From IMG/VR virus record IMGVR_UViG_3300001528_000174, positions 1 to 64,000 of that record: a stretch of 64,000 nt of DNA; one strand, given 5' to 3'. Positions 1,624-2,235 of the stretch are shown here, one piece after another (the first letter of the stretch is position 1; the number at the start of each line of letters is the position of its first letter). The stretch is from a virus (lineage: Duplodnaviria; Heunggongvirae; Uroviricota; Caudoviricetes). The notes beneath the pieces were generated by a model. That model had not been told where the DNA came from. It worked only from the letters and a program-made list of their open reading frames with translations, and ran no database searches. A program made the translations under genes and the position numbers.

Positions 1624-2235
1624 TTATTCAGGTGCTATTTTATTACCATACCAAGATTTTAAAATATAGTAATAAAAATATTTTCCAAAATGTTCCGCTA
1701 TTTCTCTAGAAATACAGCCAAGCGCGCCGACACTGGCGTAAGCGTAGCCGTAGAAGCCGGCGAGACCCGCACTAGAACCATAATACACGCGGCCCCCCAC
1801 AGACAAACGACACTTTCCAGTAGGGAATTCTTCTATTACTGTTATTTCTCCGCAGTCAAATGAAGAAGATCTTTTTATATCTTTAGATTCACCAATATAA
1901 AACCATGGATAATAGTAAGTACCTTTCCATAAAGAAGTACTTAACCCAATATGAAGAGCTTTTCTAATTAAAGCTACTAATGCTGAATATTTAGCTTCTG
2001 CAACAGGTATAGTAACAATTTTATTCCATTCAGAATCTGAAATATTAAGAATACGCTTTATATCCACTAAAGTTTTAATATCTTTGTAAGAAGGTTCTAA
2101 TTCTTCCTGCTTAAAAGCTTGTAAAGCTAAAGTTTTTAAGGATTCATTAGTTCCTGTATACCATTCTCTAGCGGTATTAATATTAATTTGAATATTTCTC
2201 TTCTCCATTTTCTTTAATATATTTAAGAGTTTCAT
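1624..2235 (-). CDS. Putative remote DGR target protein with a C-type-lectin-like variable region near the C-terminus
   Basis: 203-aa ORF. Its C-terminal part (...RLSVGGRVYYGSSAGLAGFYGYAYASVGALGC...) is encoded by a GC-rich island homologous to the DGR TR and VR1 at 54.2-54.6 kb. The protein motif LVGGSVDNGSSAGL of the main target matches SVGGRVYYGSSAGL here. Confidence 0.6.
   Translation of the reverse strand: MKLLNILKKMEKRNIQININTAREWYTGTNESLKTLALQAFKQEELEPSYKDIKTLVDIKRILNISDSEWNKIVTIPVAEAKYSALVALIRKALHIGLSTSLWKGTYYYPWFYIGESKDIKRSSSFDCGEITVIEEFPTGKCRLSVGGRVYYGSSAGLAGFYGYAYASVGALGCISREIAEHFGKYFYYYILKSWYGNKIAPE
1717..1798 (-). repeat. VR2: second variable-repeat-like copy of the DGR template, diverged and carrying a 15-nt deletion
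   Basis: The reverse complement of 1717-1798 (ggggggccgcgtgtattatggttctagtgcgggtctcgccggcttctacggctac...gccagtgtcggcgcgcttggc) aligns to TR 54486-54581. Nearly all mismatches fall on TR adenines. Exceptions are one cgc to ctt change and a 15-nt gap. Confidence 0.6.

Follow-up and report, generated by a model that had tools for sequence, protein, structure and literature searches.

A probable second, remote target of the diversity-generating retroelement in a phage of Zeta crAss-like type

Diversity-generating retroelements (DGRs) of phages are usually seen as tail-fiber host-range devices. The first 64,000 nucleotides (nt) of the IMG/VR virus record IMGVR_UViG_3300001528_000174 (the window, by which we mean the whole stretch of DNA analyzed here) contain a DGR cassette in which a template repeat (TR) lies between a tail protein gene that ends in a variable repeat (VR1) and a gene for a reverse transcriptase (RT). 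A further copy of the repeat, VR2, lies inside a small gene that is 52,683 nt from the template and on the opposite strand. This locus raises the question of whether VR2 is a working target of the distant cassette, the relic of one, or a similar sequence of other origin. The first-pass annotation, made from the sequence alone, had proposed a second, remote DGR target on the opposite strand, within the part of the genome that uses the standard code, and had added that it may be older, diverged or inactive. The proposal of a remote target 52.7 kb from its template is strongly supported by the repeat comparisons described below, from which VR2 is almost certainly a second target. The reading that we prefer as a whole, to which we assign a probability of about 0.85, is that the single DGR of the phage genuinely targets VR2 in trans and that VR2 was recently homed.

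VR2 and its relation to the template

The repeats and genes compared are the following, with coordinates given in the window.

1722-1800, minus strand: VR2 core, a variable repeat of 79 nt that is cognate to TR but lacks 15 nt in frame, inside the open reading frame (ORF) at 1624-2235
1624-2235, minus strand: target gene 2, an ORF of 203 amino acids (aa) with VR2 inside it, without TAG codons and without a Pfam family
54483-54576, plus strand: TR core (adenine content 34%), whose VR frame contains 11 AAY codons and whose tail, resembling IMH* (IMH, initiation of mutagenic homing), extends to ~54597
54177-54276, plus strand: VR1, the primary variable repeat including a 14-nt G/C run (core 54177-54270), at the C-terminus of the tail protein
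52239-54293, plus strand: target gene 1, encoding a 684-aa tail protein in which 12 in-frame TAG codons are read as sense, matching phrog_5302 ("tail protein") with E=1.8e-91
54747-56006, plus strand: DGR RT (419 aa, 3 in-frame TAG codons) that matches Pfam RVT_1 (E=5.5e-16) and carries GNYLSQ (GxxxSQ) and YADD motifs

When the VR2 core was aligned to TR with a 15-nt gap allowed, VR2 differed from the template at 20 of the 27 sites at which TR has adenine and at none of the 52 other sites (Fisher p=3.3e-13), the substitutions being 14 A>G, 5 A>T and 1 A>C. VR1 differs from TR at 18/32 A sites and at 0/62 non-A sites, and the bases of VR1 and VR2 agree at 16/27 A sites. These alignments bear out the first-pass annotation with regard to the blocks shared among VR2, TR and VR1, the placing of the differences on TR adenines and the presence of a 15-nt deletion in VR2. 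The GC-rich island matching TR and VR1 was also found where it had been placed, but its core spans 1722-1800 rather than 1717-1798. The G+C content is 66% in VR2 versus 28% in the remainder of the gene, and adenine makes up 9% of VR2. The encoded VR2 peptide does resemble that of target 1, as had been noticed, and the similarity between the two proteins, which in target 1 lies at the C-terminus formed by VR1, is confined to the 40 aa of the VR.

The window was also searched with two degenerate patterns derived from TR, each allowing up to three mismatches. Only three copies matched (VR2, TR and VR1), against chance expectations of 0.02 and 0.00 matches, and chance similarity was rejected as an explanation for VR2. 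Searches of the 64-kb window for a TR bearing the 15-nt deletion and for a third VR found neither.

The substituted template adenines show a strong bias toward G in both repeats (13/18 in VR1 and 14/20 in VR2). The bias covers all four third-position adenines (GTA, GGA, GCA and GCA), where selection on the protein should be weak.

Relatives of target gene 2 are hypervariable within the repeat. The first homologue search with the window protein returned 37 homologues. Twenty of these (P0004-P0023), many from contigs 181-184 kb in length, share ~70% identity with the window protein and are near-identical to each other outside the repeat. All 11 AAY codons of TR map to columns in which these 20 sequences have 6-12 different residues, TR codons having one A within their first two positions (ACC, ACT and AGC) map to columns with 2-3 residues, and columns for TR codons without A at position 1 or 2 are nearly all invariant, three of them having a single variant sequence. 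The AGC codon at the junction is an exception, being Gly in 20/20. The P0002 cluster, which is closest to the window protein (~84% identical) and has 15 members, displays the same pattern, with a unique VR in each member and five sporadic differences among them outside the repeat.

At the DNA level, the VR2 sequences of the relatives L002, L003 and L022 differ from the window TR at 20/32, 25/32 and 21/32 A sites, respectively, and at 0, 0 and 1 of the 62 non-A sites. The third positions of flanking codons that specify the same amino acid diverge by 19-27% between the window gene and its relatives. The non-A sites of VR2 match TR while the flanks diverge, which is just the pattern expected from repeated rewriting from a conserved template. 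The template is indeed conserved: the TR core shows 0/94 differences in L012 and L014 and a single base difference in L007, on contigs whose flanks are ~85% identical to the window. The metagenome scan for TR yielded three true TR/VR1 loci and nine chance matches. IMG/VR contained no match in a scan for close relatives with the 203-aa protein and no match to an exact 24-mer of TR.

Some VR2 alleles are mosaic. The pairs P0002/P0411 and P0415/P0419 each share their 3' two-thirds exactly and differ in the 5' third, which suggests recombination or replacement of part of the repeat; it is at the IMH-proximal end that they agree, and fresh partial homing there would predict the opposite pattern. 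Two contigs of ~178 kb found through RT homologues (L018 and L019, each at ~2260-2350) carry a DGR with a clearly different TR (AGCAGCAACGCTAATAATGG...), and this difference ruled them out as a link to the VR2 lineage of the window. Distant target-2 homologues, for example P0027, approximately fit a TR of the AGCAGCAACGCTAATAATGG type, which suggests that the remote target may co-evolve with different templates.

The 3' junction and the deletion

Two features lie at and just beyond the 3' end of VR2.

1712-1731, minus strand: 3' junction with the IMH-like element GTCGGCGCGC-TT-GGCTGTAT, consisting of an 8-nt G/C-only run, TT and GGC; TR-derived sequence usually stops after GCGC
1700-1713, minus strand: AT-rich palindrome ATTTCT-AG-AGAAAT just 3' of VR2, of doubtful significance

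VR2 ends in GTCGGCGCGC-TT-GGC, so that its G/C-only run of 8 nt is followed by TT and then GGC. The 3' end of VR1 reads GTCGGCGCGCGCGGCG, with a 14-nt G/C-only run (CGGCGCGCGCGGCG) in the same place, and that of TR reads GTCAGCGCACGCAGCT, with a G/C run broken by adenines. An IMH-like element, which the first-pass annotation had proposed to look for, is present at VR2, but in a weakened form. The annotation had also drawn attention to a change from CGC to CTT at a site that is not adenine in TR; the change is real but comprises two base changes and is situated just 3' of the core. In relatives whose VR2 diversifies, the junction codon that is CGC in TR encodes Leu (CTT or CTA), and the junction stretch is identical to that in the window apart from the synonymous CTT/CTA change. 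Judged from these alignments, CGC>CTT is most simply read as lying just outside the segment normally copied from TR, and not as decay.

One relative departs from this arrangement. In L022 (P0023) the 3' end of VR2 reads GTCAGCGCACGC-GGCTGT, which is TR sequence with its adenines unmutated and with the CGC codon of TR. L022 differs here from every VR1 seen, as its AGC GCA CGC retains adenines where VR1 has GGC GCG. Since these unmutated TR adenines are carried by no VR1, they indicate that VR2 receives sequence from TR and not from VR1. The run-through in L022 also shows, on the sequence of this allele, that the point within the G/C-rich element at which transfer stops on the 3' side is variable.

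The palindrome 3' of VR2 reads ATTTCT-AA-AGAAAT in relatives, folds no better than shuffled sequence (z=-0.36) and is also coding sequence. A counterpart at VR1 was not found, and an Rfam scan around VR2 gave no match.

The following sequence of events would account for these observations. RNA containing TR (54483-54576) would be copied by the adjacent RT (54747-56006), which would misincorporate opposite template adenines, and the mutagenized cDNA would then replace either VR1, in the C-terminus of the neighboring tail protein, or VR2, 52.7 kb away on the other strand. Both targets would be recognized through the same repeat and through a shared G/C-rich 3' junction (GTCGGCGCGC..GGC). Transfer at VR2 would usually end just before the Leu codon (CTT/CTA) and would occasionally pass through it, and the VR2 of this genome would be a recent rewrite from TR.

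The 15-nt gap in VR2 corresponds to exactly one period of an 8-nt direct repeat, CAGCAACA, which occurs in TR at offsets 50 and 65; deletion placements at offsets 50-58 are all equivalent, and the junction in VR2 is the repeat remnant CGGCTACG at 1743-1750. That the deletion equals one repeat period of TR argues for a slippage event rather than slow erosion, and the deletion probably arose by slippage between the direct repeats. Slippage could have occurred during reverse transcription, as the repeats are perfect in the RNA, or when DNA was replicated from a VR allele whose two repeats read alike, as they do in L002 (CGGCTAC twice); the two routes fit the sequence equally well and are not separable on it. 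In the BPP-1 system, it is the two ends of the VR, not the middle, that DGR homing requires. The VR2 ends in the window are identical to those of diversifying relatives, and the 5' homology and 3' junction are both preserved, so that renewed homing is predicted to be capable of restoring a full-length VR2 in this genome.

VR2 could alternatively be a dead relic in which the deletion, a weaker IMH or both have stopped homing, so that the sequence is frozen and the protein possibly non-functional. The deletion is unique to this genome (0 of ~37 close homologues carry it), it takes out five residues that include an otherwise invariant Ser-Val pair, the G/C run is broken by TT, and a single assembly of this genome is on record. 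The TT or TA interruption, however, is present in all actively diversifying relatives, the ORF is intact with the deletion in frame, and the 5' homology and 3' junction are unchanged. Moreover, the absence of non-A mismatches (0/52) beside flanks with 19-27% third-position divergence means that any freeze would have to be very recent. We therefore consider a dead relic unlikely, and these same points, together with the retention of CTT/CTA in diversifying relatives and the slippage-like character of the deletion, leave without support the suggestion that VR2 is older, diverged or inactive; the deletion allele itself may still diversify. It would take a good deal to persuade us that the deletion is instead an assembly artifact of a hypervariable, internally repetitive region, hiding a full-length VR2. 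Metagenome assembly is known to be upset by VR regions (PMC8008677), and the allele is on one contig only, but assemblers use k-mers far longer than the 8-nt repeat, the deletion keeps the frame exactly and has a clean junction, and the assemblies of relatives show no such collapse.

Instead of retrohoming, the source of the likeness of VR2 could be gene conversion or DNA recombination involving VR1, or else common descent of a lectin-like domain. The similarity of the encoded peptides and the agreement of VR1 and VR2 at 16/27 A sites are what such an origin would have in its favor. The protein similarity stops at the VR borders, however, and synonymous non-A positions equal TR across lineages that have diverged elsewhere. 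In 35 backbones that are otherwise near-identical, the AAY codons of VR2 vary independently, and the TR-type adenines of L022 (AGC GCA CGC) occur in no VR1. An origin by conversion or common ancestry is, in our judgment, scarcely credible.

Several points do weigh against the preferred reading of VR2 as a genuine and recently homed trans target, or against its extension to protein function. The Ser-Val residues dropped by the deletion are scaffold residues, invariant in P0004-P0023 and in the P0002-cluster homologues, and the deletion allele may encode a damaged protein. The G/C run of VR2 is 8 nt, compared with 14 nt in VR1, and the element is IMH-like by prediction only. Folding of the 70 nt after each VR detected no significant hairpin or cruciform after VR1 or VR2, either here or in relatives (z from -0.36 to +0.9 relative to shuffled sequence); since a hairpin is also absent at the accepted primary target, VR1, the hairpin test does not discriminate. 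The TRs of the relatives come from contigs other than those that bear their VR2 genes. AlphaFold modeled the variable domain with pLDDT below 50, and a C-type lectin fold is a candidate only. Finally, the case for an intracellular role in conflict consists solely of gene position, neighboring genes and the lack of TAG codons.

Target gene 2 and the genome around it

The true start of target gene 2 is probably the ATG at 2208, giving a protein of 194 aa that matches the MEKR... start of its relatives. The protein has no match in Pfam, and in PHROGs it has only a weak match to a family of unknown function, phrog_11581. Profile searches nevertheless place it in a large family, with 924 relatives among 1.84 billion cluster representatives in one search and 865 in a second; we take the family to have at least 865 members. 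Members are ~200 aa long and occur in crAss-like and other gut phages. They share an N-terminal helical domain, a variable segment (GGxVxxGSxAGLAxFxGxxSVGxAxAxVGALGC) and a conserved C-terminal helix (EIAxHFGKYF), and just past the VR there are a near-invariant Cys and His in the motif LGC..EIAxH. VR2 is thus internal in the protein, with a conserved 30-aa helix after it. Part of crAss001 gp100 is similar to the N-terminal helical domain, as are other hypothetical proteins from crAss-like phages in culture. AlphaFold modeled the N-terminal domain and the C-terminal helix confidently; structure searches returned nothing informative.

A well-populated subfamily of ~215 aa, encoded on contigs of 77-105 kb, has the same spiked variability within the segment GGxAxxGGxAGLGxFxSxxGVGxAxAxxGFLGC. 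A tblastn search of this subfamily against GenBank phages gave no match, and a guessed intact TR for it was not found in IMG/VR.

Target gene 2 lies in a tightly packed, TAG-free, operon-like block on the minus strand, where its neighbors encode DUF5662 and NAMPT proteins, and its relatives have a Macro-domain gene nearby. From what is generally known of NAD-salvage and Macro proteins, we assume a counter-defense role for these neighbors. Gene position, code usage and neighbors together suggest, tentatively and with the odds somewhat against it, that target 2 is an early or middle non-structural, variable binding protein that acts in phage-host conflict inside the infected cell. It would then not be a receptor-binding protein of the virion. 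The broader idea that the DGR of Crassvirales and further gut phages, besides adjusting tail-fiber specificity, diversifies an early, non-structural family of ~200-aa proteins is doubtful. These proteins would serve as intracellular programmable binders, for instance of defense or other proteins of the host, and would form a variable counter-immunity module, missed by surveys owing to the tens of kilobases between gene and RT.

On a 79-kb phage contig (L023, ena:ERZ28657454 scaffold_28), a Tad2-like (anti-Thoeris) gene is located at 13727-14215, ~3 kb from a target-2 homologue; genes for gp32-like and RecA-like proteins, an acetyltransferase and a 5'-3' exonuclease are in the same region.

The cassette itself has an RT ORF that is intact if TAG is read as sense, and no ORF of the size of Avd is present among VR1, TR and RT. 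One further feature accompanies it.

54638-54730, plus strand: structured RNA candidate between TR and RT, matching Rfam RT-17 (RF03020) over the full model length

The RT-17 match is below threshold (25.3 bits versus a gathering score of 40.4, E=0.014). A core motif, TGCC.CTTGGCAAAA...AACGT, is conserved after TR in L007, L012, L014, L018, L019 and L028, some of which have differing TRs, and the candidate probably belongs to the template RNA of the DGR.

The use of TAG as a sense codon is restricted to 31.5-64 kb, in the plus-strand late block. The minus-strand block at ~1-30 kb, which holds VR2, uses the standard code; its long ORFs are almost all TAG-free, and the few that contain TAG are overlapping or extended reading frames. 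The earlier statement that target gene 2 lacks TAG codons was correct, and stands beside 12 in target 1 and 3 in the RT. There are 13 tRNA genes in the window, in two minus-strand clusters at 8384-9947 and 21060-23489, and none of them has a CTA anticodon, though TAG is sense at 31.5-64 kb. The suppressor must therefore lie outside the window or come from the host.

The first-pass annotation had assumed a small phage genome, which does not hold: a protein identical to that of target gene 2 is encoded on a contig of 180,499 bp, indicating a genome of ~180 kb. Zeta crAss-like phages have been described as having genomes of ~145-192 kb, late stop-codon recoding, many tRNAs and a GxxxSQ DGR RT with amber codons (PMC7886860, PMC12386605). 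The present genome, at ~180 kb and with amber recoding of late genes, tRNAs, a GxxxSQ RT with amber codons and no Avd, matches these descriptions, and it is on this match that the assignment to Zeta is based.

At 13268-16051 (minus strand), the replication and early block of the window also has the gene for a 517-aa flotillin/SPFH (Band_7) protein and, after it, that for an AAA ATPase, a pairing that is unusual for such a block in a phage.

Known systems and occurrence elsewhere

The experimental paradigm for these elements is the DGR of Bordetella phage BPP-1, with its target Mtd, IMH and hairpin. As in BPP-1, transfer from TR to VR here is adenine-specific, the VR has a G/C-rich element at its 3' end with the transfer boundary inside it, and the G/C run of VR1, at 14 nt, has the length of that in BPP-1. 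In contrast to BPP-1, there is no Avd and no significant hairpin or cruciform, there are two targets, one of them in trans over 52.7 kb, and the run in VR2 is interrupted.

The closest parallel is the DGR of Quimbyvirus ("Quimbyviridae"), which has two targets, the second being distal, on the opposite strand and in a defense-related island, an arrangement called unprecedented in phages in 2021 (Benler et al., PMC8008677). In both cases one DGR serves a target beside tail genes and a distal, opposite-strand, presumed non-structural target that lies among defense or counter-defense genes, and in both cases activity is deduced from adenine-specific variation in near-identical genomes. The two systems differ in that the RT of Quimbyvirus consists of three frameshifted ORFs, whereas here it is a single ORF in a Zeta-type crAss-like genome of ~180 kb with TAG recoding. 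The second target here also belongs to another protein family without a recognizable C-type lectin domain, and its VR is internal and followed by a 30-aa helix; its neighbors encode NAMPT, Macro and DUF5662 proteins rather than methyltransferases and a nuclease.

Published crAss-like cassettes resemble the one described here in their order (target gene, VR, TR, RT), the absence of Avd, the GxxxSQ RT with amber codons, the tail-fiber target and the genome size of ~175-183 kb. The targets described for them are all cassette-adjacent tail-fiber genes, with additional TR-VR pairs known from the phages Lera and ct1yV3. The crAss-like DGR literature searched (PMC7290462, PMC11054128, PMC12386605) mentions neither a remote target located in the early or replication block nor the target-2 family. 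Remote and multiple DGR targets are known from bacteria, among them Treponema and Legionella (survey by Wu et al. 2018, PMC5758913), where, as here, several VRs share one TR and can lie in either orientation, some at a great distance from the RT. The bacterial targets are paralogous surface proteins or lipoproteins in cellular genomes, whereas the targets described here are unrelated outside the VR and reside in a lytic-type phage genome. The largest metagenomic survey of DGRs could not, by its own statement, detect remote targets (Roux et al. 2021, PMC8144416).

The mechanism is that of an ordinary DGR; the novelty lies in a large, unannotated class of remote targets in an important group of phages. 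For phage DGRs, the locus makes a sequence-level case for a use other than varying tail fibers, and it does so in the most abundant group of human-gut phages, in which one template would also rewrite a conserved, early, standard-code protein. Such remote targets are missed by cassette-centered DGR surveys and by genome annotations. With at least 865 family members and hypervariability across several lineages, the possibility that these are diversified intracellular proteins for host interaction or counter-defense is a testable idea, and the deletion allele and the run-through in L022 provide natural markers for template slippage and for the start of cDNA transfer.

Two GenBank sequences from the same study lack the parts in question. 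In MT835492.1 (L001), compared with window positions 1528-2431, the target-2 gene is precisely missing, with ~87 nt in its place. In MT835539.1 (L029, 37521-45273), compared with 52942-56270 of the window, the C-terminal two-thirds of target 1, VR1, TR and RT are missing, with ~80 nt in their place. The two sequences sum to ~176 kb and may represent one genome that lost, or never gained, both parts.

The two-target layout recurs in a different lineage, in an IMG/VR phage of ~101 kb, in which one VR belongs to the ~215-aa subfamily and the other is at the extreme C-terminus of another protein; the two are on opposite strands, and the C-terminal VR adjoins the spot where TR would sit. This spot corresponds to L028:408-530 (IMGVR_UViG_3300045988_023742, contig 1-1598), with VR1 at L028:~90-215 and VR2 at L025:1249-1287 (minus strand). 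The repeat copy at the TR position in L028 precedes the conserved CCTTGCCTCTTGGCAAAAGATAACGTAG motif and has no adenine over ~105 nt, while both VRs keep adenines. From its sequence, this copy looks like a template that was overwritten by its own mutagenized cDNA, an event that would permanently silence the DGR.

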